Assembly (NCBI GenBank): GCA_012522695.1
Contig: JAAYJX010000107.1
Location: 22,408 to 86,407, forward strand
Reading direction: 5' to 3'
Origin: Erysipelotrichia bacterium
Lineage (GTDB): Bacteria; Bacillota_I; Bacilli_A; RFN20; CAG-826
DNA length: 64,000 nucleotides
Shown here: piece by piece, positions 19,054-64,000 of the stretch
Numbering within the stretch: the first letter of the stretch is position 1
How the letters are laid out: every line of letters starts with the position of its first letter
The notes under the pieces: generated by a model
The model's database searches: none
Seen by the model: the letters and a program-made list of their open reading frames with translations, nothing else
Told to the model about the DNA's origin: nothing
Position numbers and translations under genes: made by a program

Positions 19054-19402
19054 TGAGTATCGACCCTATAAGCCATGTTCTGTCAAAGGGTAACTATTTA
19101 TCTATGCACGTAAGTGCATGCGTGCCGCCATTCATTTCTTTTAGCACACTTCCCCTACCGAATTTGGGTTTCTCGCTTGTGGGGTTTACCAACGTTCCAC
19201 TTTAATGTTTCCACTAAACTACGTCACTGTGGCACTTTCAGAGTCTTAACCATAGCCTAAGCCTTAGGTTTTGACTCGCCGTTATGCGCTCCCGCATACC
19301 TAGTGTTATTTTTTCCACTAGCACAATCACTACGAGCATCTCAGCTCGTGCGAGCATGGACTTTCCTCTAAACTAAATTAGCAGTTACCGAGGTCGATAT
19401 TA
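19054..19402 (-). ncRNA. rnpB: RNase P RNA (bacterial type B-like)
   Basis: The minus-strand sequence contains the universal P4 region GAGGAAAGTCCATGCTCGCAC...GAGATGC and the later ...AAGGCTTAGG...GTGGAACGTTGGTAAACCCCAC... elements. A P1 helix pairs 5' TATCGACC with 3' GGTCGATA. No long ORF on the gene strand. Position next to gpsB matches Bacillus. Confidence 0.9.
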
Positions 19403-27896: not shown

Positions 27897-28037
27897 AAAA
27901 AGCCCCTTTTTCAGGACTTAGTAAAAAGAAATTTGCTTCTTTCCTCTTGACTTTACAATCGCCTCTAGAATTTCACTAGATCTGCCGCAGCTCGTGGGGT
28001 TTACCACCGGTCATGAATTTCACACGGTCCTGAAGTA
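27897..28037 (-). promoter_or_regulatory. FMN riboswitch (RFN element)
   Basis: Minus-strand RNA CTTCAGGACCGTGTGAAATTCATGACCGGTGGTAAACCCCACGAGC...GCAGATCTAGTGAAATTCTAGAGGCGA. It matches the conserved RFN core ...GGGCAGGGTGAAATTCCCGACCGGCGGTAGTAAAGC...GAGC... and the 3' ...CAGTGAAAGTCTGGATGG... segment. P1 partner GTCCTGAA lies downstream. It precedes the ribU-like gene. Confidence 0.8.
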
Positions 28038-28042
28038 CTTAT

Positions 28043-49567: not shown

Positions 49568-52063
49568 TTATTTTTTCTGATAATTATTTTTTAAAAATTC
49601 TAACGCGTCACTTTCATTTAAAGGACGTGATAAATAATAACCTTGAGCATAATCACAATTGTATGTTTTTAAATATTCTAAATGTGTTTCGTTTTCAACG
49701 CCTTCACCAACAACAAGAAAACCAAGTTTTTGACCAAGCGAGATAATGTCTTCAGTAATCGCTTTATTAATTTCAATTAATTCAATACCTTGTAAAAAAG
49801 CTTTATCAATTTTTAAAGCGTTGATTTCTAAAGAAATGAGACGATGAAGTGAAGAAAAGCCCGTGCCAAAGTCGTCAATTGCCACACGAATACCTTTTGA
49901 CGTTAATTTTTTTAATAATTGGTTAATACCAAAATAAGACGTTGTAAATGAAACTTCAGTTAATTCAAGCCAAATAGAACGTGGATTAACACCAATTGAT
50001 TCAATAAGAGCTAAAAATTTATTAACAAATTGGCGATCAAGTAATTGTTGAAAAGAAACATTAATCGACATCGACATATGATCATAGCCTAAATCATGGA
50101 CTGATTTTAAGAAAGTCAAAGCTAAACGGTTAATTTTATCACCGTAAATAATCATTAACTTATTCCTTTCTAATAGGGGAATAAATTCTAAAGGAGGGAT
50201 AAGACCTAACTTTTCGCTTTTAAAGCGGGCTAGGGCTTCAAAACCACTTATTTCGCCACGTTTAACATTAAAGATTGGTTGATATTGTAAATATAGTTGT
50301 TCATTATCAATTTGTACTGAAGCATCAACTAATTCTTTTAAAATTTGTTTTTCGCGTTCAATTTTTAAAGCAAGACGATCATCAAAATAACTAATCTCAA
50401 TTAATTTATCATCACTAGCTCTTTCTTGCTCAGTCGTTAAAAGAACGTTTTTAAGAATCGTTTCAAGTTGATTTGGCTTAGTATTTGGAGGAATATGTAA
50501 AACACCAACCCGGCACGTCACGCGTTCACTCCATAACAATGGTTCTAAAACTTTAACGACCTTTAAATAAAACTGATGGATTTCTTCTTCACTATCATAA
50601 TTTTTAATATAAAAACTTAAACGTGTTTCATGAGTAAGATATAGTTTACAATTATCATTTTCTAAAACTTTAAGTTTATTACTAATTTTCTTCATTAAAT
50701 CTCTTATATAGTGATAACCATGACTACTCGTTAATTGTTGAATTGAATTTAAGTTTAATAAGAAAAATGTTTTTTTCGATTTTTTATCATAAGTTAAATC
50801 ATACGTCATAAGTGTTTCTAAATAACGACGATTATGTAAACCCGTCCATTCATCAAATTCACTTCTATGTTTAATTTCTGCCTCATATTTTTTAATTTCG
50901 TTAATATCAATAATGATACCTTCTATGGCAATTGTTTCTTTATCACTATTAATGATCGGTTCACCAATTTCTAAGACCCATTTTTTCTCCTTATTTTTTG
51001 TAATAATCGGATATTGAAAACGGTATGTTGTTTGGTTTTTAACAGCTTTAAGTTGTAAATGGTAAATTTCACTTAAATATTCAGGGGCGATTAAATCGAT
51101 AAATTTTAAATCACGATTATCAATAAAAGCTTCAGGTTCATAACCAGTTAATTCTCTTGAACCTTTGGAAACAAACACTTTCGTAAAATCTTTATCAATG
51201 CGACTACGATAAGCTAAACCTGGTAGATGCGATAACAAAACGTCTTTGCTTCTTTCGCTTTCAAGAAAAGAAAGTTCAAATGATTTACGAATGCTCGTAT
51301 CACGAATAATCGCAAAATAAGTAAAAATTTCATCATCGGGAATATCGACTTTAATAACGAATAAATGCGTATAAACAACATCACCATTAGGACGGATAAA
51401 ACGTTTATCTAGATCATATCGATCAATTTTGCCTTTGATAAAATCGTTAAAGTATTTTAAATCTTTTTCTAAATCTTCTGGATGAGTATATTTTCGCCAG
51501 TCAATTTCGGTATGAAGGTCTTCTTCGATTGGCACGCCTAAAATATCGCGAAAAGCTTTATTAGCTCGAAATGATTGTAAGCGACCACCGCCTCTACGGA
51601 AAAACCTTGTAATGGAAATACCAAAAGGCGCGTGATTAAAAAGAGCAACAAAAATTTCACGCATATCCGATGATCTTTTTGAAGCGATAACATATTCTTG
51701 ATCTTTTTCAATTGAGCGAACGGCAAAATTTAAAGCATCACCATTAATTGGTGTCGTTAAATATTCAAATGTTTGTAGTTCTTGTGATTCTAAATTGTTT
51801 TTAATTGTTTCTTCTTTGCCAAGTAGAATAACACGAATATCTTTTATTTTTTTATCAAATTTTAAATGAGCTAAAAGTTGGTAACCTAATAAATCAGGAG
51901 CGTCTAAATCTAAAAATAAAAGGGGCGAACTTTCAATTTTAGCAAAATAAGCTAGTGCTTTTTGAATATTCGAACTATAAAAAATTTTATAATTGTTTAA
52001 AGCTAGGCTAATCGTTTTGTAATGTTCGTCTTCTTTTGAGAAAACAATCGCATGTTTTGTCAT
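49568..52063 (-). CDS. Multidomain c-di-GMP signalling protein: REC-like, PAS, degenerate GGDEF and EAL phosphodiesterase
   Basis: 831 aa. N-terminal receiver-like fold. The GGDEF-domain start TGLHNRRYL is present but no GG(D/E)EF signature, so the cyclase looks degenerate. The EAL domain carries EALARF, DDFGTGFSSL and EGVE motifs and looks catalytically competent. Confidence 0.8.
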   Translation of the reverse strand: MTKHAIVFSKEDEHYKTISLALNNYKIFYSSNIQKALAYFAKIESSPLLFLDLDAPDLLGYQLLAHLKFDKKIKDIRVILLGKEETIKNNLESQELQTFEYLTTPINGDALNFAVRSIEKDQEYVIASKRSSDMREIFVALFNHAPFGISITRFFRRGGGRLQSFRANKAFRDILGVPIEEDLHTEIDWRKYTHPEDLEKDLKYFNDFIKGKIDRYDLDKRFIRPNGDVVYTHLFVIKVDIPDDEIFTYFAIIRDTSIRKSFELSFLESERSKDVLLSHLPGLAYRSRIDKDFTKVFVSKGSRELTGYEPEAFIDNRDLKFIDLIAPEYLSEIYHLQLKAVKNQTTYRFQYPIITKNKEKKWVLEIGEPIINSDKETIAIEGIIIDINEIKKYEAEIKHRSEFDEWTGLHNRRYLETLMTYDLTYDKKSKKTFFLLNLNSIQQLTSSHGYHYIRDLMKKISNKLKVLENDNCKLYLTHETRLSFYIKNYDSEEEIHQFYLKVVKVLEPLLWSERVTCRVGVLHIPPNTKPNQLETILKNVLLTTEQERASDDKLIEISYFDDRLALKIEREKQILKELVDASVQIDNEQLYLQYQPIFNVKRGEISGFEALARFKSEKLGLIPPLEFIPLLERNKLMIIYGDKINRLALTFLKSVHDLGYDHMSMSINVSFQQLLDRQFVNKFLALIESIGVNPRSIWLELTEVSFTTSYFGINQLLKKLTSKGIRVAIDDFGTGFSSLHRLISLEINALKIDKAFLQGIELIEINKAITEDIISLGQKLGFLVVGEGVENETHLEYLKTYNCDYAQGYYLSRPLNESDALEFLKNNYQKK

Positions 52064-52194: not shown

Positions 52195-52920
52195 TTAATC
52201 AAAAGAGTGAACTAATTCTTCTAAAAGCGTCTCAATTAAGCTACCAATATGAGGCTGAGCTTCTAAACCAATACGTAGGGCAGATATTAGCTGATTATCT
52301 TTGCCAACTTCGTAAGTAACGGCTTTAAGTAAAAGCCAAGGAACGTCATGAACATAACATGCCGTAATAACGCCACCAGATTCTGTATCAAGGGCGATTT
52401 TATTTTCAATGTGCGAAAAGTTTTTCTTAATTAATTCATTCGCAACTTTTAAATTCGTATGAAAAGTATTCGTTGAAACAAGTGGTCCACGACCAATATT
52501 TAAGTTTTCTGTCCGTGAGTTAAGTGTTTGAATTAAACGAATGTAATCATCTTCACTTGAATAAAAAACAGGTAAGTCTTTAATTTGTCCATATTTAGTA
52601 TTACCTAAAGCTTCTAAGTTCATATCACCTAAATGAACACGTTCAGCAATAAATAAATCACCTTGATGAAGGTTAGGACTAATTGAAGTAACCGCACCAA
52701 CAGAAATAACAATATAAGGTTTATACTTACTAATCATAAAACTTGTCACAATTGCGGAAGTAATATTTGAATAACCTGTATGGGCCAAACAAACATCTTT
52801 ACCAGCAAAAGAACCAACATAATAAGGATGTTTCATCGCGATTTTGTTTTCTTCGCTAATTTTTAGACGAGATTTAAAATATAAAATATCGTCTTCGGTT
52901 GTGCCAATAATTAAAATCAT
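52195..52920 (-). CDS. PNP_UDP_1-family nucleosidase (MTA/SAH nucleosidase-like)
   Basis: 241 aa. The N-terminal MILIIGTTEDD and the internal GSL / ESGG patterns resemble Pfs/MtnN-like phosphorylase-fold proteins. The assignment is moderate. Confidence 0.5.
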   Translation of the reverse strand: MILIIGTTEDDILYFKSRLKISEENKIAMKHPYYVGSFAGKDVCLAHTGYSNITSAIVTSFMISKYKPYIVISVGAVTSISPNLHQGDLFIAERVHLGDMNLEALGNTKYGQIKDLPVFYSSEDDYIRLIQTLNSRTENLNIGRGPLVSTNTFHTNLKVANELIKKNFSHIENKIALDTESGGVITACYVHDVPWLLLKAVTYEVGKDNQLISALRIGLEAQPHIGSLIETLLEELVHSFD

Positions 52921-54485
52921 TAATTACCACCTCTTCCTTTTTCAAAACGATTATTTTCTAAAAAGTTCATATAATTTTCTGGTCTAAGTGGTTCACTATA
53001 ATAAAACCCTTGAATACAATTTGCTCCCATTGATTGAAGAAGACGGATTTGTTCATATTCTTGAACACCTTCAATTACGACATATGCTTCTAAAATATGG
53101 GCAATTTTAATAATTTCACGGACTAAACCGCGTGATTTTTCATCAATTTCTAAATCACTTAAGAAAGCACGATCAATTTTAATAATGTCAAAAGGAATAC
53201 GTTTAATATAACTAAGTGAAGAGAAGCCTGTGCCAAAGTCGTCAATTGCTACTTTAATATTTAAAGCTTTAATTTTTTTGACAACCGCTAACAAATATAA
53301 AACGTCATATGGTGAAGGCGATTCAACGATTTCTACTTCTAATAACATCGGATTAATTTTATATTTTTTAATTGTTTCTTCAATATAAGGAACAACATCA
53401 CTACTAAAAATCATCCGTTTGGATAAGTTAACTGAAATAGGTAAAAGTCTTTTGCCGTGATCTCGCCAATGAGCTAAACGCTGACAAACAAGATCAAAAA
53501 CGTATTTATCAATTTCAATAATTAAATCAGATTGTTCGGCTAAAGAAATAAAAGCCGCTGGTGAAATTACACCACGCTCAGGATGAATCCAACGAAGTAG
53601 GGCTTCACTTGAAACAAAACGTTTAAGTTTTAAGTCGTATTTTGGTTGAAAGAAAACTTCAAATTCTTTTTTCTTTAAACCTTCTTCAATATCACGAGCT
53701 AAACCAACGTTACGTTCGCTTTTTTTAAACATTGAATCATTAAAAATAAAAATACCGCCGCGATCTGTATTAAGACGACCAAAATCACTTGCAATTAAAG
53801 CTGTTTGAAATAAACTTTCAGCCGAAGAGGTTTCTTTATTACGAATTGATAAACCATAGTGAGGATTAAAATCAATATTAACTTTTTCTTCACTTAAAAG
53901 ATGGTTAATATGTTCACTAAGTTTTTCTAAAGATTGTTGCATTTTCTTTTCGTTATATTTTGGAATAAAAAGTAAGAAGTTATCTGAATAATCATATCCA
54001 TAAAGTAATTTGGGATATTGTTTTTTTAATTCATCAATTGCTAAAAAAACCATACTAATAACTTTTGATTCTTTTTCATAACCATAACGTAAGAAAACTT
54101 CTTTTTTAAATTTAAACGTTGAAAAAGCAATTGCGACTGCTTCTTCATATTCTTTCCGACGGAAAAATTTATTAATTTGTAAAATTAAATCTCTTTCATC
54201 TAAAATATTTTCCGCTAATGGAAATAAGTTAGTATTTAAAACACGTTTAACAGATACTTGTTGCGAACGAGAGTAATTAATTAAGGCAAAAACTAAAAAG
54301 GCAATGCTTGTCAAAGTTAAAATAACAATTGCAAGTATTTTGTAGGCTAAATTACCATCAATGACTATAAAAGAGTCAAATAGCCCAGCGCTAACAATAA
54401 TATTTACAATAAAAAAGATAATAAAGCCTAAAAAATATAAGCTATATCGTAATGGATAATTAGGATTCTTATTTTTCATCTTCAT
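52920..54485 (-). CDS. Membrane-anchored degenerate-GGDEF / EAL c-di-GMP phosphodiesterase
   Basis: N-terminal 2 TM and a periplasmic-like loop. EAL domain with EALLRW and DDFGTGFSSL. No GGDEF signature. The start was probably trimmed to MKMKNKNP, and the track ORF extends to 54533. Confidence 0.75.
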   Translation of the reverse strand: MKMKNKNPNYPLRYSLYFLGFIIFFIVNIIVSAGLFDSFIVIDGNLAYKILAIVILTLTSIAFLVFALINYSRSQQVSVKRVLNTNLFPLAENILDERDLILQINKFFRRKEYEEAVAIAFSTFKFKKEVFLRYGYEKESKVISMVFLAIDELKKQYPKLLYGYDYSDNFLLFIPKYNEKKMQQSLEKLSEHINHLLSEEKVNIDFNPHYGLSIRNKETSSAESLFQTALIASDFGRLNTDRGGIFIFNDSMFKKSERNVGLARDIEEGLKKKEFEVFFQPKYDLKLKRFVSSEALLRWIHPERGVISPAAFISLAEQSDLIIEIDKYVFDLVCQRLAHWRDHGKRLLPISVNLSKRMIFSSDVVPYIEETIKKYKINPMLLEVEIVESPSPYDVLYLLAVVKKIKALNIKVAIDDFGTGFSSLSYIKRIPFDIIKIDRAFLSDLEIDEKSRGLVREIIKIAHILEAYVVIEGVQEYEQIRLLQSMGANCIQGFYYSEPLRPENYMNFLENNRFEKGRGGN

Positions 54486-55251
54486 CTCTCCTTTCTTCGC
54501 TTGAAGACCGCAGTTTTTCTTTTTCTTTTTCAATTAAAAGTTTGAGTTTTTCTTGCTGCTTAATTTTTTCAAATTCATCTAAGCCTTCAAAATCAACTGA
54601 AACTTTTTCTGTTTCTTCTTTGCGCTCTTTAACATTTTTAGAAATATCAAAAAGCGAGCTAATAAAAACGTATAAAAGAGGAACAAGACCAACGATAATA
54701 ATCGTAAAAGGATTGCGCGTAAATTTAACGAAAAGTCCTAAAGCTTTAGAGTTTTTAATCCAAACTCCTAAGACGTCTTCTTCTTTAATCGTGTCAATTC
54801 CTTTACCCGTGCTTTGATCGCACACACCATTAGGAAATTGAGAACAAGTTTCGGCATTTTTATTATCACCAAATGTTTTAAAAGTAAATTTACCATCATT
54901 TTCAATTTTTTCAATAACACGGTGAGTAATAATTAAGCCGTCACTTCGACGGAAATAAGTAATAATATCGCCATCCATTGCATCCTCACTACTAGGTCCT
55001 TTAATTTGATTAGCGGGGACGCGTTTAATAATAATACCAACATCAATCGGTAAAACTGGCTCCATCGAATCAGTTAAAACTGTCAGCATTTGATAATTAC
55101 CAAATCGTTGCACACCATGGTTACTTCTCGCCGTAATTAAACCAAAGACTTGAAAAAAGAGTAAAAGACCAGCAAGCGAACCTAAAACAATCGTTGTAAT
55201 TCTATTTACAAGTTTCTTTTTTGGTAACTTAACTTTTTCTTTCTTATTCAT
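54469..55251 (-). CDS. sipW: Signal peptidase I of ER/archaeal (SipW) type, with extended charged C-terminal tail
   Basis: 260 aa. N-terminal TM, SMEP catalytic-Ser motif (LTDSMEPVL) characteristic of SEC11/SipW-type SPases, a second C-terminal TM, then a K/E-rich tail. Confidence 0.75.
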   Translation of the reverse strand: MNKKEKVKLPKKKLVNRITTIVLGSLAGLLLFFQVFGLITARSNHGVQRFGNYQMLTVLTDSMEPVLPIDVGIIIKRVPANQIKGPSSEDAMDGDIITYFRRSDGLIITHRVIEKIENDGKFTFKTFGDNKNAETCSQFPNGVCDQSTGKGIDTIKEEDVLGVWIKNSKALGLFVKFTRNPFTIIIVGLVPLLYVFISSLFDISKNVKERKEETEKVSVDFEGLDEFEKIKQQEKLKLLIEKEKEKLRSSSEERRDEDEK

Positions 55252-56647
55252 CTTCTTTCCTTCTCATTTTAGCAACATTAATAACTTGTTCGCGCGCTTT
55301 TGCTAAAAGGGCTTCTTCTTCTAATCGTAGTTTTTCTAATCTTTCTTTTTCTTTTTTTGCTAAAATAGCGTCTTGTTTACGTTTAGCAAGAAGTAATTTA
55401 CGTTGACGTTCTTTTTCTTTCTTTTCAAGAGCTTTAAGTGCGGCAAGTTTTTTTGCCTCTTCGCGTTTTTCTAAAGCAAGTTGACGTTCTTTAGCTCTTT
55501 CTTCAAGACGAAGTTGTCGACGTTTTTCAGCCGCTTCAGCCCGTTTAATTTTTGCTTCAATTTGGGCAAGTGTTTCTTTTTTAACATCAACGCCGAAGGT
55601 TACGCTTTTACCAATAATTTTATCGTCAGTTAAATCAACATCAAGACGAACTTTTTTAAAGCGAGGTTTATAAAAGTATTGTTTCTTTTTATCACTTGGC
55701 ATCGTATGGTCACTTCTAAGTGTTAAATAAGAACTTAACATTAATAAATGTAAATCATCTAAATAATCTTCTTTAAATTCAATATCGTTTTGGCTAAAGC
55801 GATATTCAATACCTAAGACGTCATAACGTGTAATAAAAAGCCAGAGACGATACGCTGCTTGATATTCATAATTAAGACGCATTATATTTGTTTGTTGGAC
55901 CGGATCACTAACTGGTGCGACTTTACGCATTTCAAGCATAAAGCGCGAAGTTGTTAAGTATGTAATCCGTTTACGAATATGAAGAAGACGGTCGAGTAAA
56001 TCAGCATTAGCGTGTCTTTTCCCATCATCATCACTAGGAACAACAATCCGCATCTTAGTTTCAAATTCATATGATACTTCGTCGATTTTCATTTCTGAAG
56101 TTAATTTAACAATATCACTATGCCGTGTATCACTATGTTCAGATATATATTTATATCTAAGTTCAATAAAAGCTTGAAGACGACGAACAAGCGTCATAAT
56201 AAAACGGTTTTCATATATTTTTAATTCATCATCCATAAACATATTTAAAACTCGTTTAGGTTCGATTGTTCCATCACTACCAACTGAGCGGATATTTTGT
56301 GTATTTTGTGACATATGTTCAATTGAACGTTGGGTAATCTTTTTCGCCTTTTCAACACCGACAACTTCGGCTGTTTCTTTAATAAAACGATGTGGATCAT
56401 TAACAATTGCTTCTAAAGAAGGAAGCGCTCTTTCAATTTCTAAAATAAAATCAGGTGCATAAGTTTTAACTTCACGACGCGACACACCGCCATAAGTATT
56501 TTTAGAAGCAGCAAAAATATTTAAAAGTTCATGATATTCTTCATCACTACTTGCTAAACGTTTTAAGCGTGAAAAATGTTTTTGTTTTAAATCTTTAATA
56601 ATTTCGCTAGGAGTTAATACGGGAGCGTCTTTTTTGGTTTTTGCCAT
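55244..56647 (-). CDS. Hypothetical protein with a long C-terminal K/E/R-rich coiled coil. Partner of the AAA_5 ATPase; McrC-like role possible.
   Basis: 467 aa. No recognisable catalytic motifs beyond weak D...E.K-like stretches. Its start overlaps the sipW stop (8 nt) and it is 16 nt downstream of the ATPase gene. The last ~120 aa are a heptad-rich charged tail. Confidence 0.45.
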   Translation of the reverse strand: MAKTKKDAPVLTPSEIIKDLKQKHFSRLKRLASSDEEYHELLNIFAASKNTYGGVSRREVKTYAPDFILEIERALPSLEAIVNDPHRFIKETAEVVGVEKAKKITQRSIEHMSQNTQNIRSVGSDGTIEPKRVLNMFMDDELKIYENRFIMTLVRRLQAFIELRYKYISEHSDTRHSDIVKLTSEMKIDEVSYEFETKMRIVVPSDDDGKRHANADLLDRLLHIRKRITYLTTSRFMLEMRKVAPVSDPVQQTNIMRLNYEYQAAYRLWLFITRYDVLGIEYRFSQNDIEFKEDYLDDLHLLMLSSYLTLRSDHTMPSDKKKQYFYKPRFKKVRLDVDLTDDKIIGKSVTFGVDVKKETLAQIEAKIKRAEAAEKRRQLRLEERAKERQLALEKREEAKKLAALKALEKKEKERQRKLLLAKRKQDAILAKKEKERLEKLRLEEEALLAKAREQVINVAKMRRKEDE

Positions 56648-56662
56648 GACTATCCTCCTTTA

Positions 56663-58183
56663 TTAACCTATTTTTAAATAATCTGAAATAATTCTTTGTG
56701 ATTGCCAAAAAACACCTTTACCAAATAATTTATCAAGTTCACTCGAAAGTTCTTTTAATTCATCGTGCATAAACGCTAAGTTAAGCGAAGTAAATTTCTT
56801 TAAAACTTTAGAAGCAAAAATAAAATCAAGTGCTTCGTTTTCTGTACCCCCGCAAGCAATATAGTTCGAAGTAAAAAGACGAAGTTGTCTTAAAATTCGA
56901 TTACCAAAAGCAATCCGAAAACGATCAGCAACAAGTTTATCTAAACGATCAAATTTTGTTAATGCTTCTTTACTAATTGGGTAATTTGTTTGAGCGTTAG
57001 CAAAAAGTTTTAAAAAATCAGCTGAAGAAATTGAAACACCTTCCGTATATTCAACTGAACATGCTTCAATTTTTTCATTTAAAGTAATACTAATTGCTCG
57101 ATCATAAACTTTATCAGTAATTGTAAAAGTTGAGTCATCATTATTTGCTGTACCGACAAACCAAAGGTTTTGGGAAATAAGTAATTTACCATTTTCTAAT
57201 TGTTTAGGATTAATATTATCGGCTGTTCTTGTAATTTGAACTTTCCATTCATCAACCGAAGGCATTTCCATAATTGAAAGAAAGTCAGCAAAATAATATT
57301 CAATACGCGCGAGGTTCATTTCATCAAGAATAATCATATTCGGTTCTTGACGGTAACTTGCTTCATAAATAGCTTGTAAAAATTCGGTTTCATTAAACTT
57401 TTTCGTAAATTCATTAAAATAACCGAGCATTTCTGTTCTTTCTCGCCAAGATGGTTGAACAGAACATATTACCGCGTCATGTTTAAAAAACTTACCAATT
57501 GCATATGGTAAAGAAGTTTTACCAGTTCCCGAAATACCTTCTAAAATAATAAACTTCGATGTTCCTAACGCCGCAAACATCGTCCGAACTGTGCTCATAT
57601 CATAATATAAACAAAGCTGAGAGGCGGCAAAACGGAAAAAACGATCAACAATTTGTTCTAAAGAAATACCAATATCACTAGGTGGAACTTCGACAGTTGT
57701 ATCTAAATCAGCATATTTAATATCTATTGCTCCCAATTTTGGAAAGGCTTCTAAAACACGACGGTCACTACCTTCACCATCTTCACCTTCTGGTTGAAGA
57801 CCAAAAGAATCAGCTTTAAGTTTTAAAATTTCATTTTTTTCTTGAATTGCTAAAAATAATTCTTTATTTAATTTTTGCACTTCATCAAGAAGTTTTTCTT
57901 TTGAAACACGGCGATTATTAAAAACAATAAGTTTACGAACTAAAAAATACATAACGTAACCAAGTGAACCAATAAGGGCAAAGACTAAAATAATAAAAAC
58001 GACGAAGAGAATCCAGCCTCCTGCGCCGAATTGATGATTGTATGTTTGAAAAATTAATTTGTATTGACCAAAGTCACTACCAACTCCATACCAAGGTTCA
58101 GCAAAAATCGTTGCTAAAAAATGGCCTAAGTTTTTAAATAAAGCTTCAAACAACTCTCGAATGTAATTAAAAAATGCACTCAT
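56663..58183 (-). CDS. Membrane-anchored AAA_5 (McrB-like) ATPase/GTPase
   Basis: 506 aa. One strongly hydrophobic TM (WILFVVFIILVFALIGSLGYVMYFLV), a coiled coil, Walker A EGISGTGKTS, McrB-like Walker B/sensor ILDEMNLARIEYYF and FVGTANNDD. Confidence 0.65.
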   Translation of the reverse strand: MSAFFNYIRELFEALFKNLGHFLATIFAEPWYGVGSDFGQYKLIFQTYNHQFGAGGWILFVVFIILVFALIGSLGYVMYFLVRKLIVFNNRRVSKEKLLDEVQKLNKELFLAIQEKNEILKLKADSFGLQPEGEDGEGSDRRVLEAFPKLGAIDIKYADLDTTVEVPPSDIGISLEQIVDRFFRFAASQLCLYYDMSTVRTMFAALGTSKFIILEGISGTGKTSLPYAIGKFFKHDAVICSVQPSWRERTEMLGYFNEFTKKFNETEFLQAIYEASYRQEPNMIILDEMNLARIEYYFADFLSIMEMPSVDEWKVQITRTADNINPKQLENGKLLISQNLWFVGTANNDDSTFTITDKVYDRAISITLNEKIEACSVEYTEGVSISSADFLKLFANAQTNYPISKEALTKFDRLDKLVADRFRIAFGNRILRQLRLFTSNYIACGGTENEALDFIFASKVLKKFTSLNLAFMHDELKELSSELDKLFGKGVFWQSQRIISDYLKIG

Positions 58184-58239: not shown

Positions 58240-59436
58240 TTAAATATCTTCTTCACTAGCAGCACTAAAGCGTAAGTTTGCACCGAACGATTTAGATCTA
58301 AGCTTGTTGCTAGAAAAGGCGTCCCAGCCTTCATACCAAATTTGAATTTTAATTTCGGCCACGCCTTTTGTGTCAGTTTTAGCAATTGGCTGACCATCAA
58401 TAAATTCGGCGCTATAAGTCGAAAAAATTGTATGTTCTTGAAGGGCTGGTTTGTAGTTAGGGTGATCAATTAATAAAGGGCGTACGCCTTGTAATGTCCC
58501 TGCTTGATGAAGCGAGGGGGTTATACTAGTTTCCAAAGGAATACTTTCAGTAGTAATATCCCCCCAATTACTTTCATCTAAAGGTTCTAAGAAATCGCCA
58601 TAAGCAATTTCATAACGTGAGCCAACTTCTGATTCATCATTTGGATTAATTTTAGATCCCTCAGGTGTGGCATCAAAAAATCCATCTTCATCTAAATCAA
58701 GGCGGCCCCCGACCGTTGTGTAATCATTTGTATCGCGACCCGGACTAATAATATCGCTCGTTAATTGGCTTTCAAAACCAAAACGCAAAACTTTCAGCAA
58801 TTCTTCGCTGCCATAAAATTCATTGTCCGCGCCGATGAAGATGCCATAATTAGCAACTCCACTTGATGATGTCTCACCATTAGTTGCTTTCGCTACCCGA
58901 AATAATATTGTAAAAGAAATAAATGTTTCTTTATCAGCGGGTATTATTTGTTTTGCTTGTGGACGAGAACTACCGGCAATTGGTTCTTGATATAAGTTAA
59001 TTGCATCACCTTTACTAAAACGTCGAGAAGTAATAGGCATAACTGCATTAGTAACCGAGAAACCATTGTGATAGATAATTTGTCGCAACGTTTGATTATT
59101 AACGACGTTGCTCGTCCAATAAACATAGCCGTCACCTTCAATTCCGTATTCATCTGGAACTAAAGAATATTTTTCTTGTTCATTAATCGAAATTGGTGTG
59201 GCGACACGAAAGCCTACTTCTCTTATGCCGACTTCTTCTTTATTTAAAAAGTCAAAGCCGATTGTCGTTGTGTTAGCTAAATATTCACCAATCGTATAGC
59301 CAAGATAAGAAATTAAGACAAACGCTGCTAAAACACTACTTGAAATCGAGGTTAAAATGATCGAACGTTTTTTACGCTTCTTATGATCATTAACTTCTTT
59401 TTCTATATTAATTTGACGCAAACGCAAGTCCTCCAC
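58240..59436 (-). CDS. Membrane-anchored extracellular protein, distant paralogue of the TasA-like family (TapA-like anchor/accessory candidate)
   Basis: 398 aa. N-terminal basic stretch plus one TM. C-terminal AEIKIQIWYEGWDAF...GANLRF resembles VDVTFRFWIEGEDEH...IGGVFKIDLKMY of the three downstream paralogues. The annotated start is GTG. A TTG 5 codons in has better GGAGGA spacing. Confidence 0.5.
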   Translation of the reverse strand: MEDLRLRQINIEKEVNDHKKRKKRSIILTSISSSVLAAFVLISYLGYTIGEYLANTTTIGFDFLNKEEVGIREVGFRVATPISINEQEKYSLVPDEYGIEGDGYVYWTSNVVNNQTLRQIIYHNGFSVTNAVMPITSRRFSKGDAINLYQEPIAGSSRPQAKQIIPADKETFISFTILFRVAKATNGETSSSGVANYGIFIGADNEFYGSEELLKVLRFGFESQLTSDIISPGRDTNDYTTVGGRLDLDEDGFFDATPEGSKINPNDESEVGSRYEIAYGDFLEPLDESNWGDITTESIPLETSITPSLHQAGTLQGVRPLLIDHPNYKPALQEHTIFSTYSAEFIDGQPIAKTDTKGVAEIKIQIWYEGWDAFSSNKLRSKSFGANLRFSAASEEDI

Positions 59437-59907
59437 TTTCTTAATAGAAATAGTCTAAAGAGACATCTTTGTTCGGTAAATTCACCATGTTTTGATTCTA
59501 ACCCCATTACTTGTTAGAGATCACTTGTGAAAAGATGCCTTTCTCACTAACTTGTTTAGACTTGTTAGGAGTCCCTCTAAAGAATAAAACGATGCTAACC
59601 GAGAATTGCCCAGAATCAATTAGTTATCTTATTCTTTCGGCAACTGGCTACCATCGTTTTGAAGGCCCTATAGTTTTGCGTCGCTAAATTTCTTTAGTTT
59701 TGCCTTTTTCGGTATTGATTATATAACAACTCAATAATCTTGTAAAGCCTTTTAATCAAAATTAGTCATATTTCACTAAATTATTACATTTTACTATGTA
59801 AAGAATGCAAAAAGACATATACTTTATCCAGTTATAACAACCTTAAACATAAAGAAAAAACCACCTAGAGATGGCTTTTCTTCATCTATTAATAATATCT
59901 AAATTAA

Positions 59908-60330: not shown

Positions 60331-60371
60331 AACTAGGGTGTCAAATTAAATTTATTCGACAAGCCCTAGTT
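60331..60371 (-). terminator. Terminator hairpin after TasA-like gene 1 (copy A of a repeated element)
   Basis: AACTAGGG...GCCCTAGTT inverted repeat followed by a T-run on the minus strand. Confidence 0.6.
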
Positions 60372-60406
60372 ATTTTAGAAAACTACGTTATAAACTTTGT
60401 AAGAAA

Positions 60407-61300
60407 TTAAGCAATAACTGGTAATGCGTACATCTTAAGATCGATTTTAAAGACACCACCGATAGCAGCGTTAACTGCGTGTTCGTCTTCGCCTTCAATC
60501 CAAAAACGGAAAGTGACATCAACAGTTGGAGCAGCGGATGTAAGTGTAAGGAAGGGTTCATAATTGTCAGCAGCAGCTTCTGCTACAGTTGGGTAGTAAT
60601 CAAATGCAGCGCCTTCCACAACGTCAGTTAAAACTTCAGTGTCAAGATATTCTTTAACACCCCAAGCTTCATCTTGGTCATCACCAGTTTTGGTTAAATA
60701 ATTGTAAGTTGTTTCTGCTTCAGGTGAATAATGATAAAATGCAGCTCCACCTTTAATCGCGGCCATACGAACGGCTTTAACAGCAGCAACGTCTGCGGCA
60801 TCAGCGCTTGCAGCGGTAACTGCAGTGCCTGCGTCAAAATAAACGTTTAAATCATTTGTTGATTGTGCGCCTGAGCCACGAGCGATTGTTAATGTAAAGT
60901 CAATTAAATAACCATCGGCATCACCAGCAGCGGCTAATGTAATATCATCAATACGATCGGCAACTTGGCCTCCGCCATAGGTGTTGGCCTTCCAGACTGG
61001 TTTGTAAAAATCAATACCGTCGCCGGAAATGTCAGTAACCTTGTTACCGCCTGAAAGAACAACATTATTAACAGTTTTACCATCATTAACATAATCATTA
61101 GTTGTGGCAGTCATAGTGTTTAGGGATGAAACATAGTGAACACTTAAGTCATTATCTTGTGTTTCAACGGTTGCGCTACTATATGAGATAGATGCGCTAC
61201 GGACGGTTGTAAACCAAGCAAATGTTGAGCTGGTTGCAGCAATACCACTTAAAACAACGAGTCCCATAATTGTAAGTAATACTTTATTTTTCTTATTCAT
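60407..61300 (-). CDS. Secreted TasA/camelysin-like protein with SipW-cognate signal peptide (paralogue 1)
   Basis: 297 aa. MNKKNKVLLTIMGLVVLSGIAATSSTFAWFTTV matches the SipW-dependent signal class (compare B. cereus CalY ...GGGTFAFFSD). The mature part is Ala/Thr/Gly-rich. The conserved C-terminus FRFWIEGEDEHAVNAAIGGVFKIDLKMYALPV is present. Confidence 0.7.
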   Translation of the reverse strand: MNKKNKVLLTIMGLVVLSGIAATSSTFAWFTTVRSASISYSSATVETQDNDLSVHYVSSLNTMTATTNDYVNDGKTVNNVVLSGGNKVTDISGDGIDFYKPVWKANTYGGGQVADRIDDITLAAAGDADGYLIDFTLTIARGSGAQSTNDLNVYFDAGTAVTAASADAADVAAVKAVRMAAIKGGAAFYHYSPEAETTYNYLTKTGDDQDEAWGVKEYLDTEVLTDVVEGAAFDYYPTVAEAAADNYEPFLTLTSAAPTVDVTFRFWIEGEDEHAVNAAIGGVFKIDLKMYALPVIA

Positions 61301-61336
61301 AATTTTAAATTCTCCTTTTGTAATGAATATTCTTTA

Positions 61337-62227
61337 TTATAAGTTTACGGGTAATCCGTAAAGTTGTAATTCGATGTCGAATAATCCGCCAATGGCGTCA
61401 TTATCACAATGAACATCTTCACCTTCGAGCCATGCACGGAAGGTAACATCAACTGAAGCTCCTTTTGCCACACTAGCAATTGCAGTTGTAGCACCATCAG
61501 CAGTAGTCACATCAGTGTATTCAACAAACGCATTGTAATAAGGTCCGGCGTGGACAGCGGTTGTATACCCGTCTACACTATAAAGGTCTTCACCAGCGTC
61601 TTCGACAATGTGCTTATGTCCACCAGCTTCTGCTTCAGGTGAATAAATTAAGACGACAGCATCAGCTGCGCTAATAACAGCTAAGCGTGCAGCTTTAACA
61701 GCGGCAGCATTTTTAGCTTCTTGAGCTAATTCTTCTGGTGTTGCAGTACCCCCAGCGTATTCAACTTCTTTAGCAATAATTTTTGTGTCTGGACCAAGAT
61801 ATACTTTCATATCATCATCACCAATATCGTCAAGACTAATCGTGATCGTAAAGTCAACGTAATAACCATCAGCGCTTGTTGCACCCACGGTTGGAATTTC
61901 ATTAGCGACACGAGCAGATGGTTTGTCAAGTAGTGAATTCCAAACAGGTTTGTAAAAAACAAGACCATCACTTGAGACGTCTGTAATATCATTAATGCCA
62001 TCTAAAATGATTTCGTTGGCACTGCCAGTATCAGTCATACCAGAGTTTAATGAAGATTTAAAAGCAATATCTAAATTACCTTCTTTAGTAACGACTTTCG
62101 CGCTGGAATAATGTAGGGAAGCTGTTCGCGCAGTATAAAACCAAGCAAACGTTGAACTAATAGCAGCAATTCCGCTTAAAAAAGCTAAGCCAATTGTTGC
62201 TAATAAAATTTTGTTTTTCTTATTCAT
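61337..62227 (-). CDS. Secreted TasA/camelysin-like protein with SipW-cognate signal peptide (paralogue 2)
   Basis: 296 aa. MNKKNKILLATIGLAFLSGIAAISSTFAWFYTART. C-terminus FRAWLEGEDVHCDNDAIGGLFDIELQLYGLPV. Confidence 0.7.
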   Translation of the reverse strand: MNKKNKILLATIGLAFLSGIAAISSTFAWFYTARTASLHYSSAKVVTKEGNLDIAFKSSLNSGMTDTGSANEIILDGINDITDVSSDGLVFYKPVWNSLLDKPSARVANEIPTVGATSADGYYVDFTITISLDDIGDDDMKVYLGPDTKIIAKEVEYAGGTATPEELAQEAKNAAAVKAARLAVISAADAVVLIYSPEAEAGGHKHIVEDAGEDLYSVDGYTTAVHAGPYYNAFVEYTDVTTADGATTAIASVAKGASVDVTFRAWLEGEDVHCDNDAIGGLFDIELQLYGLPVNL

Positions 62228-62368
62228 GTAGAAAATCCTCCAATAGATTTCTCCTTTGTTGTTAAGGAGTTGTGAGGTCCAAATTGTTAATGGGACAATG
62301 GCCTCAAAGCGGGCAATTCGCTTCTAGTATCCATCAACGAGGGAGGTCAAATAAATACTAGCACCATT

Positions 62369-62398
62369 ATTATAGTATGTTTTGTAACTAAAATGCAA
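62369..62398 (-). promoter_or_regulatory. Promoter for the paralogue-2/1 transcript
   Basis: Minus strand TTGCAT, 18 nt spacer, TATAAT. It predicts a ~135-nt 5' leader. Confidence 0.5.
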
Positions 62399-62692
62399 GT
62401 ATTATGTTGTTACGAAGTAACAAGAAATTAAATTTTTAACATTTTTAAAAGTTTTTTGAAAAAAATTCGCTTTATTTTTATAAATTTAGATTTTTTAAGT
62501 GAATAAGTGACTTTGAAAAATGTGTGATTTTTTTAGTTTTTGTTTCTTTTTAAAAAACCATTATTTTTGTCGTAAAAAATATTTTTTTGCCTTGTGATGT
62601 TTTTTATAATAAAAATTGAGTTTTTTTGAGACTATTTTAGCCTTTTTGAAAAAACTAAATTTTAAAAATTATAAAAGCTGTTTTGGATAAAA

Positions 62693-62733
62693 AAACTAGG
62701 GCTTTTTATAAGTAAATTGTTTGCCCTAGTTAT
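62693..62733 (-). terminator. Terminator hairpin after TasA-like gene 3 (copy B of the repeated element)
   Basis: AACTAGGGC-(loop)-GCCCTAGTT with the same stem sequence as at 60331-60371. A T-run follows on the minus strand. Confidence 0.6.
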
Positions 62734-62755
62734 TTTGTTAGTTTATAAGAATTAA

Positions 62756-63829
62756 TTAAATGACTGACAATGCATACATTCTTAGGTCAATACTAAAGAC
62801 ACCACCAATTGCGGCGTTAACTGCATCATCGTCTTCGCCTTCAACCCAAAAGCGGAAAGTAATATGAGCAGTTGGATCAGCTTCAGTAAGTGTAAGAAGG
62901 GGTTTATAATTTGCGTCTTCAGCTTCGACAACAGTTGAAAAATATTTAAACTCAGAACCTTTTTCATTTATTGTCGGTGTTGAAGGGTCATCTTGAATAC
63001 CTTCAACAGCATTAATCACATCTTCAGGATCAGCGGCATCACCTAAAATTGATGTATTAGAATAACCTAAAATAGTATAAGTAGTTCCACCACTGTCTTC
63101 ACTTAAATAATTATAAAGAGGCTCCGCGTGTGGCGCGTAATAGAAAATAGGCTTTAAGGGGCTTATATCGTCTATTACGGGATTATCAGGGTCAGTAATG
63201 TCATAAGTAACATCTGTTTCAATTACGGCCATTCTTACGGCTTCAACGACTTTATTATTTCGATCTTGTTGTTCAATTTGAGCATTACTTGGATTTTGAT
63301 TTTCGCCTATAACATCAATTGGCGAAATAAGTGTCCCACGATCAAAATAAATATTTAAATCATTTGGCGAATAAAGGTTAACACCACGAGCTATTTCTAA
63401 AGTAAAATCAATTAAATATCCATCAGCAGATTTAGTAAGATTGCCTTTATTATCTTTGTAAGATAAATCTATTTCATTAATATAGTCAGCTATACTTGCA
63501 TCGCCTGGATCATAAGCACTCCAAACAGGTTTGTAAAAATTAATGCCATCGCCTGAAATATCAGTAACTTTGTTAAGACCAGAAAGGACAACATTATTAG
63601 AACTTTTTCCTTCATTAACAGAAAGATTTGTTGTTGCGGTCACTGAATTAAGTGATGATATATATTTAACACTTAGGTCGTTATTTTTTGTTTCAACAGT
63701 TGCGCTTGTAAAAGAAATTATCGCACTACGAACGGTAGTAAACCAAGCAAAGGTTGAACCAGTCGCCGCCGCACCACTTAAAACAACAAGGCCAATTGTT
63801 GTTAGTAATAATTTATTTTTCTTATTCAT
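62756..63829 (-). CDS. Secreted TasA/camelysin-like protein with SipW-cognate signal peptide (paralogue 3, with ~60-aa insertion)
   Basis: 357 aa. MNKKNKLLLTTIGLVVLSGAAATGSTFAWFTTV. N-terminal 110 aa nearly identical to paralogue 1. C-terminus FRFWVEGEDDDAVNAAIGGVFSIDLRMYALSV. Confidence 0.7.
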   Translation of the reverse strand: MNKKNKLLLTTIGLVVLSGAAATGSTFAWFTTVRSAIISFTSATVETKNNDLSVKYISSLNSVTATTNLSVNEGKSSNNVVLSGLNKVTDISGDGINFYKPVWSAYDPGDASIADYINEIDLSYKDNKGNLTKSADGYLIDFTLEIARGVNLYSPNDLNIYFDRGTLISPIDVIGENQNPSNAQIEQQDRNNKVVEAVRMAVIETDVTYDITDPDNPVIDDISPLKPIFYYAPHAEPLYNYLSEDSGGTTYTILGYSNTSILGDAADPEDVINAVEGIQDDPSTPTINEKGSEFKYFSTVVEAEDANYKPLLTLTEADPTAHITFRFWVEGEDDDAVNAAIGGVFSIDLRMYALSVI

Positions 63830-63856
63830 TTTTTTATTTCTCCATAAGCTTTTTAT

Positions 63857-64000
63857 TGATCGTAATGTTTACGAATTTCGATTGTTTCAATTGTAAAAGT
63901 CAGACCTTGATAAACATTAGAGTTACCTAATGTTGATTTTTCATAAAAAACATCACCATTATCTTTTGAGGCAAATTTATAAAAAGTTGAGGGGTCGCCA
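63857..64000 (-). CDS. 3' end of an upstream gene (partial, unknown function), probably co-transcribed with paralogue 3
   Basis: My translation of the minus frame gives ...GDPSTFYKFASKDNGDVFYEKSTLGNSNVYQGLTFTIETIEIRKHYDQ*, stopping at 63857-63859. Only 27 nt separate it from the GGAGAAAT RBS and the paralogue-3 start. Confidence 0.4.

Follow-up and report, generated by a model that had tools for sequence, protein, structure and literature searches.

Riboswitch RNAs that act in trans have been described in Listeria, where SreA and SreB act on prfA, as a review relates (Loh et al. 2009, reviewed in PMC8079631). The same review describes the B12-gated Rli55/EutX system, in which the functional element lies 3' of the riboswitch terminator and belongs to the long transcript only (PMC8079631). 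In this study we describe a locus in which cyclic di-GMP (c-di-GMP) may be the signal of a related circuit. It lies in 64,000 nucleotides (nt) of DNA from an Erysipelotrichia bacterium (GenBank assembly GCA_012522695.1, contig JAAYJX010000107.1, positions 22,408 to 86,407), referred to below as the window, whose numbering is used throughout. On the minus strand, a leader RNA of about 140 nt precedes a gene for a putative fibre subunit and carries terminal hairpin loops (L1, L2 and L3) that are complementary to the 5' untranslated region (UTR) of a neighbouring operon. This second UTR, called UTR-2, contains a c-di-GMP-I riboswitch. At the level of sequence, three conserved complementary sites link the riboswitch-controlled RNA to the 5' UTR of the second mRNA. 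Our preferred reading, to which we give a probability of roughly 0.4, is that the riboswitch has a second output in trans: read-through UTR-2 would dock onto the three leader loops and switch on translation of the subunit.

The comparison with the Listeria RNAs is instructive on both sides. SreA is a terminated, ligand-bound short RNA that represses by way of a single duplex, whereas here an ON switch is concerned whose read-through leader is the predicted active form, the predicted effect is activation and three separate loop contacts would be involved. The complements of L1 and L3 (anti-L1 and anti-L3) lie 3' of a terminator, as does the Rli55 element. The present system differs from both in that the two partners are mRNA leaders (5' UTRs) of neighbouring operons in one cluster. 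To our knowledge no c-di-GMP riboswitch with a trans output has been reported, and our literature searches found none.

Regulators with several C-rich loops include RNAIII of S. aureus (PMC2837412), 6C of M. tuberculosis (PMC6486639) and LhrC of Listeria (PMC4132741). The leader resembles them in the pairing of C-rich hairpin loops with G-rich sequences, or with sequences like the Shine-Dalgarno (SD) element, by bipartite or multi-site contacts that include loop-loop kissing. Those regulators are stand-alone small RNAs that repress many targets by masking the SD; here, in contrast, the loops belong to an mRNA 5' UTR, L2 and L3 are not generic anti-SD sequences and have specific partners of 7-10 nt, and there is apparently a single partner, encoded 2.6 kb away. 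Loop presentation on both partners, as in kissing antisense pairs of the RNAIII and CopA/CopT types, is found here with the exception of anti-L1. With the c-di-GMP-I (GEMM-I, RF01051) riboswitch the leader shares regulon and locus, and L2 mimics the 3' strand of the aptamer's P1 helix; the leader itself has no similarity to the aptamer model and no terminator, and consists instead of five tandem hairpins. Leaders that sequester the SD or stabilise the 5' end form a further group, to which RNA thermometers, the CsrA-controlled hag leader and the aprE, ompA and S-layer leaders belong. In common with them, the leader is a long 5' UTR on the mRNA of an abundant structural protein that is secreted, with a hairpin close to the predicted 5' end and an anti-SD element able to pair with the SD, whereas no nested helix buries the SD here and invariant loops with a complementary partner RNA are found here only.

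A conserved leader RNA before the subunit genes

The original prediction had proposed a TTGCAT-18-TATAAT promoter and a structured leader behind it, and both were found where it had put them (Table 1); in subtype 2c leaders the -10 hexamer reads TATACT. We infer a transcription start site about 7 nt past the -10 hexamer, 1-4 nt ahead of the first hairpin. The leader folds into five tandem hairpins, P1 to P5, with a minimum free energy (MFE) of -37.4 kcal/mol (z = -2.75 against dinucleotide shuffles, of which 3 of 200 were equally good), and the same five hairpins appear in each leader when it is folded independently. P3 is the 'long imperfect hairpin' that had been noticed from the sequence, and it recurs in relatives with compensatory changes; the 'small AAGCG...CGCUU stem' is P2, which relatives retain as well, its core unchanged and its extension covarying.

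Relatives of the locus were collected by a protein-based scan with one genome per species (19 loci, here denoted by L and a number, as are the others), by a metagenome scan anchored on the pattern GCGA-N0-1-ATTGCCCG-N50-80-GGAGGATTTT (41 stretches), and from the contigs of eight homologues with 38-63% identity. Searches with a hidden Markov model and then with covariance model R1 found 40 leader copies, 33 of them unique, in the first two collections, and 7 further copies were present in the third. Every copy stands directly 5' of a gene for a protein of the pattern MNKKNK…TFAWFT, in metagenome-assembled genomes (MAGs) of uncultured Bacilli and in metagenomes. The same gene family follows the 27 copies that came from the DNA pattern, which is blind to the downstream gene. 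Identity among the downstream proteins is about 28-63%, and over a 38-nt core the leaders reach 97% identity between loci with about 50% identity in the protein. The window holds exactly one copy according to the covariance model scan, in which paralogous copies were sought and none further was found. In one MAG (JBAZHG01), three near-identical modules of upstream gene, leader and subunit gene occupy three contigs (L015-L017), and the modules of L015 and L016 also contain a c-di-GMP-I aptamer.

Helices P1 to P4, whose conservation in orthologous leaders had been suggested as a check, covary. In a covariance model alignment of 29 unique leaders, compensatory changes occur in 24 of 39 pairs; 80.3% of the alignment cells are paired, against 38-52% when the partners are slid by 1-3 columns, and the covariation score of 0.353 compares with 0.07-0.14 in the slid controls and was reached by none of 500 shuffles. 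The picture was repeated in the 18 leaders selected by protein similarity alone, in which 38 positions, concentrated in the loops, are invariant. P5 and a possible pairing of L1 with the SD consist of invariant bases and are beyond the reach of covariation.

The leader represents a structured RNA family that is new, well supported and without an entry in Rfam. Searches of the window and of the leader against Rfam 15 assigned the leader to no family at gathering thresholds, and membership of the c-di-GMP-I/II, c-di-AMP, T-box or thermometer families, which had been entertained, is contradicted by the lack of any Rfam match even at E <= 10. For the region 62100-62800, zero matches to c-di-GMP-I/II (RF01051, RF01786 and variants) were obtained at E <= 10 with permissive filters, and the chance matches that did appear were far under gathering (dfrA-dnaX, 23.6 against 48.6; mir-7961; Afu_254). 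The Rfam search was able to pick up the true c-di-GMP-I aptamer of UTR-2, at 66.5 bits. An all-against-all column scan revealed neither stacked covarying pairs outside the five hairpins nor a junction-closing helix. A closing helix P0 and pseudoknots were considered and rejected as clade-driven coincidences, P0 being inconsistent across subtypes. Inspection found no Watson-Crick kissing of L2 with L3 inside the leader, and pairing of either loop with the leader's own SD or with P4 is weak or inconsistent. A leader peptide encoded by an upstream open reading frame (ORF) was likewise rejected: the sole AUG lies 5' of the inferred start site and is not conserved. The leader has no intrinsic terminator, which leaves translation or stability as the level of any control. 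Our literature searches found no earlier account of the leader or of the locus.

These results bear on the idea of a new small-molecule riboswitch, for c-di-GMP or another ligand, in which the loops would form a tertiary pocket and L1 pairing with the SD would be the expression platform. Conserved unpaired nucleotides and covarying helices are what such an RNA would have; the setting is that of a c-di-GMP regulon, with GGDEF and EAL genes and flanking c-di-GMP-I aptamers, and in sister genomes a c-di-GMP-I aptamer precedes the same genes. The guanidine-II riboswitch is an earlier example of tandem hairpins with conserved loops. We nevertheless regard the idea as very improbable: Rfam gives no match at E <= 10, the hairpins show neither a junction nor a closing helix, covariation supports no pseudoknot, and L2 and L3 share no Watson-Crick complementarity; one gene family only is served, and the complements in UTR-2 would explain the loops more simply. 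From the original suggestion of a riboswitch, thermometer or protein-titrated leader, the conserved, structured leader survives, and it is almost certainly a regulatory 5' UTR; an aptamer-type junction, a supported pseudoknot, a terminator and a family match were not found. The suspected connection to c-di-GMP appears to hold in another form, in that the leader matches no c-di-GMP aptamer and its invariant loops complement the UTR of a nearby c-di-GMP-I riboswitch; the link looks indirect, by way of the partner RNA.

The original prediction further envisaged that three anti-SD tracts sequester the SD. The first of them (CCUCCCUC) is conserved as the single-stranded loop L1, while the other two proved to be stem arms: GACCUC forms the 3' side of the P3 stem, which covaries, and CUCCUU is the 5' arm of P4, where it pairs with the first GGAG box (AAGGAG) and not with the true SD. 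The P4 arms are always pyrimidine (5') and purine (3'). In 21 native leaders, 1.1-6.4 kcal/mol are needed to open GGAGGA, and this does not exceed the cost in controls whose upstream part was dinucleotide-shuffled (mean z = -0.65). Sequestration by nested structure was rejected on this comparison as a sufficient explanation. A duplex of L1 with the SD, which is outside the reach of nested folding, is possible in all subtypes (-8.9 to -10.8 kcal/mol).

A leader that supports high expression is a further alternative. Its hairpins would shield an abundant mRNA from 5'-end-dependent decay without responding to a signal, and its pyrimidine tracts would be kept off the SD, by analogy with the S-layer, ompA and aprE leaders. 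P1 begins within 1-4 nt of the inferred start site, the promoter is strong, the SD is, if anything, slightly more open than in shuffled controls, and P4 ties up a pyrimidine tract with an SD-like one. However, a stabiliser needs structure and not sequence, and 38 invariant, loop-rich positions are kept where proteins are about 28-50% identical; the complementarity to UTR-2 would also go unexplained. We consider such a passive role quite improbable.

Complementarity between the leader loops and UTR-2

The c-di-GMP-I aptamer of UTR-2 lies 2.5 kb downstream of the leader on the same strand, and every related locus has one in the same place. Just 5' of it, an equivalent TTTACA/TTGACA-17-TATAAT promoter occurs in 11 of 11 loci examined, and a weak terminator-like hairpin follows the gene that precedes UTR-2. 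Because UTR-2 has its own conserved promoter, the two UTRs most likely belong to separate transcripts. The 5' arm of the riboswitch terminator overlaps the 3' half of the aptamer, which suggests an ON switch. From 5' to 3', UTR-2 is made up of the aptamer ending in …CCAGUUGCC, 22 nt, GGGCAAUUC (anti-L2), UC, GGUUAGCAUCGUUUU (the terminator 3' arm), AUUCUUUA and GAGGGA (anti-L1), followed by about 60 nt, CUAAC-AAGUAAUGGG-GUUAG and further sequence up to the GTG start codon at 59436.

The reverse complement of the L2 nonamer recurs about 25 nt 3' of this second aptamer (in the window, the pair is entry I5 of the repeat scan). In the window, L2 with its flank (GAAUUGCCCG) can form 9 Watson-Crick pairs and one G·U pair with anti-L2 (-16.6 kcal/mol); L1 (UCCCUC) can form 6 base pairs (bp) with GAGGGA (-11.0 kcal/mol), and L3 (CCCAUUA) 7 bp with UAAUGGG. 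The possible L2 duplex has 8-10 contiguous bp in every lineage. In a strict scan of both window strands (128 kb) for contiguous Watson-Crick complements of the loop nucleotides, the sole L2 complement of at least 9 nt, the leader's own antisense aside, was that at 59611, and UTR-2 was the sole site with complements of L2 (at least 8 nt), L1 (at least 6) and L3 (at least 7) within 300 nt. From the site densities, we roughly estimate the chance of meeting such a triple somewhere in the window at about 0.02, and that of meeting it in UTR-2 specifically at about 4e-5. When other loci were scanned with their own loops at thresholds of 8, 5 and 6 nt, a UTR-2 site about 30 nt after the aptamer was found in 12 of 14, against a background of 6 spurious sites in 238 kb.

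When the UTR-2 sequences of 15 loci are aligned, three islands, GGGCAAU, GGG and UAAUGG, stand out as invariant amid variable sequence; they complement the cores of the loops that do not vary either, AUUGCCC, CCC and CCAUUA. In most lineages UAAUGG occupies a terminal loop, the stem of which reads CUAAC/GUUAG, GGCG/CGCC, AUGAUG/CAUCAU, GCGU/ACGC or CUAU/AUAG. A constant loop on a covarying stem that varies with lineage is the anatomy that would be expected of a kissing partner, and L1, L2 and L3 are themselves terminal hairpin loops. The leader subtypes and their UTR-2 change in step: type-1 leaders (L1 CCUCCCUC) face GAGGGA, and type-2 leaders (L1 CCCCCU) face AGGGG(G), with a perfect 6 bp in L071. 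In L065 and L073 the register of L3 is shifted and 7 bp are kept (CCAUUAA:UUAAUGG). The pair flanking L2 is G:C in the subtype of the window (GAAUUGCCC:GGGCAAUUC) and U:A in the version found in spacers (UAAUUGCCC:GGGCAAUUA). An origin of the sites by inverted duplication was rejected, the orders L1-L2-L3 and anti-L2-anti-L1-anti-L3 not being collinear in reverse.

A second group of genomes (L007-L010, L067-L070, L072) has no such leader before the subunit operon, which carries its own c-di-GMP-I aptamer instead. In all six of six loci with such an aptamer, UTR-2 is without UAAUGG (anti-L3) and without the post-terminator G-run (anti-L1). The spacer before the orthologous paralogue keeps a weak relative of the leader in these loci (25-26 bits with the covariance model in L008 and L069) and bears a conserved hairpin, CCUAAUUGCCCAAUUAG, which is complementary to CGGGCAAUUA in the platform of the second riboswitch (L007, 3910-3940; L008; L009, 4884; L067, 1595; L069, 2914; L070, 2924; L072, 3893). 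The L2-like hairpin and the extended anti-L2 are both lost in L010.

These patterns in UTR-2 can be set against the possibility that a dedicated RNA-binding protein, perhaps unsecreted subunit or another product of the locus, reads the C-rich loops. It would control translation or stability much as CsrA and FliW do on flagellin mRNA, and the complementarity to UTR-2 would be incidental or secondary. Invariant loops on covarying stems, a CCC core common to all three loops and tandem hairpins free of junctions, typical of protein-binding sites, agree with it, as do the restriction of the leader to one gene family and its occurrence more than once in a genome, with a paralogue behind each copy (L015-L017). 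However, the locus encodes no recognisable candidate for such a protein, and the UTR-2 islands, their subtype-matched changes and their absence where the leader is absent would be left unexplained. We judge control by such a protein improbable.

Table 1. Features of the leader, UTR-2 and adjoining genes in the window (loop partners are named after the loops they complement)
Feature	Position	Strand	Remarks
-35 hexamer of leader promoter, TTGCAT	62398-62393	minus	read directly; CTTGCA conserved in orthologous loci (invariant columns, alignment A2)
-10 hexamer of leader promoter, TATAAT	62374-62369	minus	18-nt spacer; invariant in alignment A2
Leader RNA, P1-P5	62228-62368	minus	~140 nt; match to covariance model R1 at 62225-62368, 114 bits
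P1 hairpin	62361-62324	minus	outer stem CUAGUAU/AUACUAG; independent folds; helices 1-2, two-sided changes in 9/10 pairs
Loop L1 of P1, CCUCCCUC	62346-62339	minus	C-rich; CCCUC (62343-62339) invariant in protein-selected set
P2 hairpin, AAGCG-AAUUGCC-CGCUU, loop L2 = AAUUGCCC	62323-62307	minus	invariant core, covarying extension
AGCGAAUUGCCCG in P2	62322-62310	minus	invariant among 18 protein-selected leaders
L2 with flank, GAAUUGCCCG	62319-62310	minus	complementary to riboswitch platform
P3 hairpin	62305-62274	minus	helices 4-5, 8/9 pairs compensatory
Loop L3 of P3, CCCAUUAAC	62294-62286	minus	C.CAU.A (62294-62288) invariant in protein-selected leaders
P4 hairpin, CUCCUU/AAGGAG	62269-62251	minus	two-sided changes in 4/6 pairs; first GGAG box at 62256-62251
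P5 hairpin	62250-62233	minus	weak; bears SD; independent folds; zero two-sided changes
GGAGGAUUUU, P5/SD region	62241-62232	minus	invariant in protein-selected leaders
Start codon ATG of first subunit gene	62227-62225	minus	
First subunit gene	61337-62227	minus	296 amino acids (aa); ORF directly after leader
Second subunit paralogue	60407-61300	minus	36 nt after first; same leader transcript
Extra subunit paralogue	62756-63829	minus	5' of leader
UTR-2 promoter, TTTACA-17-TATAAT	59746-59718	minus	own promoter of riboswitch transcript
c-di-GMP-I aptamer	59636-59714	minus	RF01051, 66.5 bits (gathering 35), E = 8e-11
Riboswitch terminator hairpin	59660-59586	minus	overlaps aptamer 3' half; inverted repeat I14; long terminator in MFE; lower stem 59660-59646 with 59600-59586; upper AGUUGCC (59645-59639) with GGCAAUU; then U-tract
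Anti-L2, GGGCAAUUC	59611-59603	minus	between aptamer and terminator 3' arm
Anti-L1, GAGGGA	59577-59572	minus	right after terminator U-tract; single-stranded beside the hairpin, not in a loop
Anti-L3 hairpin, CUAAC-AAGUAAUGGG-GUUAG	59517-59498	minus	loop UAAUGGG, 59509-59503
First ORF of riboswitch operon	58240-59436	minus	398 aa; GTG start; followed by AAA ATPase and further genes, including EAL

A tentative mechanism and its direction

Folding suggests how ligand could control access to the partner sites. In the MFE structure of the full riboswitch RNA, the 3' half of the aptamer pairs with GGUUAGCAUCGUUUU and anti-L2 is buried, with a probability of being unpaired of 0-0.26. To approximate the ligand-bound state, the aptamer was folded separately and the platform by itself; the platform then forms an antiterminator-like hairpin (CUAAUUGA/UCGGUUAG, 59623-59595) with UUCUGGGCAAUUC in a 13-nt loop, and the probability of anti-L2 being unpaired is 0.74-0.96. 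Across lineages the antiterminator helix reaches 80% pairing, compared with 16-49% in slid registers, and its covariation support is modest. Anti-L2 is thus predicted to be exposed in a loop when the aptamer is folded and hidden in the terminator without ligand. Anti-L1 and anti-L3 lie past the terminator U-tract and therefore occur only in read-through RNA. L2 is a better-matched mimic of the P1 3' strand of the aptamer, reading AAUUGCC where the aptamer has AGUUGCC.

In the mechanism that we favour, the leader would be a docking module for UTR-2, the 5' UTR of the adjacent riboswitch-controlled operon. At low c-di-GMP the riboswitch would terminate, and L1, acting as an anti-SD, would pair with the leader's own SD (GGAGG) and damp translation of the subunit. 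At high c-di-GMP, read-through UTR-2 would kiss L2 and L3, the SD-like anti-L1 would then capture L1, and the SD would be released. The major fibre subunit would in this way be translated only while the c-di-GMP-induced operon is being transcribed, and such a mechanism would explain why, in sister genomes, the subunit genes are preceded by a c-di-GMP-I aptamer instead. The calculated energies are compatible with the exchange: L1 with anti-L1 gives -11 to -13.8 kcal/mol and L1 with the SD -8.9 to -10.6 kcal/mol, the former being the stronger in 8 of 10 lineages. That the two RNAs pair physically, in this direction and with this effect, is an inference; a c-di-GMP-gated kissing of two mRNAs that frees the subunit SD is the tentative reading to which the probability given at the outset refers.

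Several observations weigh against this reading. The evidence is wholly computational, nested folding gives no excess sequestration of the SD, and the pairing of L1 with the SD is invisible to covariation. A permissive scan, in which RNAduplex energies of the padded loops were summed against every 300-nt stretch of both strands, did not discriminate: UTR-2 scored -38.3 kcal/mol and several unrelated stretches about -39. By chance alone, roughly one complementary 9-mer would be expected in 128 kb; what makes the match significant is where it lies, that three sites occur together and that they are conserved. L2 and L3 hardly vary, nor do their partners, and classical covariation is therefore scarce. 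Cognate leaders and UTR-2 fit better than non-cognate ones (overall p = 0.02; L1, 0.004; L2, 0.016), with p values that are inflated by shared ancestry, the split between type 1 and type 2 amounting to 1-2 independent events; for L3, both partners of which are nearly invariant, the cognate advantage is nil (p = 0.6). Individual loci depart from the pattern, too. L024 retains L1 and L3 while its UTR-2 is without anti-L1 and anti-L3, the L1 matches of L011/L027 and L033 comprise just 4 bp, and L067 keeps an L2-like hairpin where the platform is degenerate. Anti-L2 (GGCAAU) also pairs in cis with the 3' strand of aptamer P1, and part of its conservation accordingly needs no partner in trans. Lastly, a stoichiometric activator would be awkward if the subunit mRNA greatly outnumbers UTR-2.

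The same pairing can also be read in reverse, with the abundant subunit leader acting on the riboswitch transcript. Binding of L2 to anti-L2 would block both invasion of P1 and the upper terminator stem, favouring ligand binding and read-through; binding of L1 and L3 would alter the stability or translation of the operon for the 398-aa protein and the ATPase, and the second operon would be expressed only when subunit mRNA is present. The complementarity applies equally to either direction, and anti-L2 is the very strand that competes with aptamer P1. With its strong consensus promoter, the leader is likely to outnumber its partner; in several loci L1 is also complementary to the SD of the gene for the 398-aa protein (-12.3 kcal/mol), and L2-like and anti-L2 elements are present too where the subunit operon has its own riboswitch. 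On the other side, the 15-bp lower stem of the terminator still forms when anti-L2 is blocked, anti-L1 and anti-L3 lie past the terminator and are thus without influence on the termination decision, and the role of L1 as an anti-SD for the leader's own invariant SD is left unexplained. The reverse direction seems unlikely to us; judged from the sequences, we would place it first among the alternatives, followed in falling plausibility by the protein-titrated leader, the passive stabiliser and the small-molecule aptamer.

The subunit locus and its relatives

Gene order is conserved across the loci, with the fullest series in L073. There, an opposite-strand GGDEF gene, a c-di-GMP-I(-GGC) aptamer and genes for proteins of about 271, 783 and 271 aa are followed by promoter and leader, one or two subunit genes and a small membrane protein, and then by promoter and c-di-GMP-I aptamer, the 398-aa protein, an AAA ATPase and two unknown proteins. 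An EAL protein, a PNP-family phosphorylase gene (PF01048) and a response-regulator-PAS-GGDEF-EAL protein complete the series. The window follows this order from the end of the ~271/~783/~271-aa genes onward, with the extra paralogue before the leader. The adjacent EAL proteins of the original prediction are real (52920-54533 and 49568-52063). Wherever sequence extends that far, a c-di-GMP-I aptamer stands before the second operon (in 19 of the loci scanned with Rfam).

The simple notion that the leader replaces an aptamer had to be tempered, the aptamer of L073 (c-di-GMP-I-GGC) heading the cluster, 5' of three extra genes. The c-di-GMP-I-GGC model (RF03167) is the best-scoring one for aptamers in L073 (5664-5739), L003 (3060-3138), L061 (5484-5562) and L069 (5489-5565); that of L073 heads the entire cluster, beside the divergent GGDEF gene.

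The subunit family occupies 60407-63829 and 63853-64000 of the window (minus strand). Three paralogues lie within it, and the first subunit and the extra paralogue are 32% identical. For the 'TasA-like' label that the proteins had been given we find no basis: the subunit has no Pfam or NCBIfam domain, Foldseek at a limit of E = 1e-3 matches its AlphaFold (AF2) model (predicted local distance difference test score, pLDDT, 79) to no PDB entry, and searching PDB sequences with a profile returned nothing relevant. Only the N-terminal signal-peptide motif resembles TasA. Homologues come solely from MAGs of uncultured 'Bacilli'/'Tenericutes' and from metagenomes, with digesters and groundwater among the sampled sites, and the family may represent an uncharacterised surface-fibre system. 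The 398-aa protein and the subunits share a short C-terminal motif (IQIWYEGWDAFSSN and FRAWLEGEDVHCDN, respectively); homology between them is not significant by hhalign (probability 2.3%, E = 0.02). Downstream of the 398-aa gene, the AAA ATPase (506 aa) and a 467-aa protein are encoded at 55244-58183 (minus strand; 13069-16028 in L073). The ATPase is 58-67% identical across loci and thus better conserved than the subunits, and the L073 orthologue of the 467-aa protein has a weak match to DUF2357, the pair being reminiscent of McrB/McrC.

Some features around the leader promoter are confined to part of the family. An inverted repeat, TTGTTAC-ttc-GTAACAA (62404-62424, minus strand), adjoins the -35 hexamer on its 5' side in subtype 1a only; in relatives it reads TTTGTTAT…ATAACAAA (L001, ~3802-3820; L073, ~9797-9818), and it may serve as the operator of a transcription factor or form a small hairpin. 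The intergenic region 5' of the leader promoter is unusually long (528 nt, against about 70 nt in other loci) and contains three copies of an AT-rich direct repeat of about 32 nt (TTTTTAACATTTTTAAAAGTTTTTTGAAAAAA-like, 62433-62691). Near-identical terminator hairpins, ACUAGGGC…GCCCUAGU with a U-run, follow the upstream paralogue (62689-62736) and the second subunit gene (60361-60377), and the former insulates the leader promoter from read-through. Elsewhere in the window, a class B RNase P RNA (19064-19396, minus strand, 298 bits) and an FMN riboswitch (27930-28041, minus strand, 86 bits) are consistent with a Bacillota genome and the standard genetic code.

The locus may be an uncharacterised, c-di-GMP-regulated surface-fibre locus of poorly known, uncultured Bacilli, and its leader stays a well-supported new structured RNA motif even if the proposed pairing proves wrong. 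If the pairing is correct, one aptamer would govern two operons through a circuit of three mRNA-mRNA kissing contacts. This would be the first trans-acting c-di-GMP riboswitch, a second-messenger sensor that broadcasts its decision to another transcript through its read-through leader, and it would widen the set of trans-acting riboswitches, represented by S-adenosylmethionine (SAM)/SreA and B12/Rli55, to c-di-GMP and to an activating, multi-loop mechanism. It would also define a new, easily modelled RNA family together with its partner sites, and would give a reason why related genomes put either a c-di-GMP-I aptamer or this leader before the same fibre genes.

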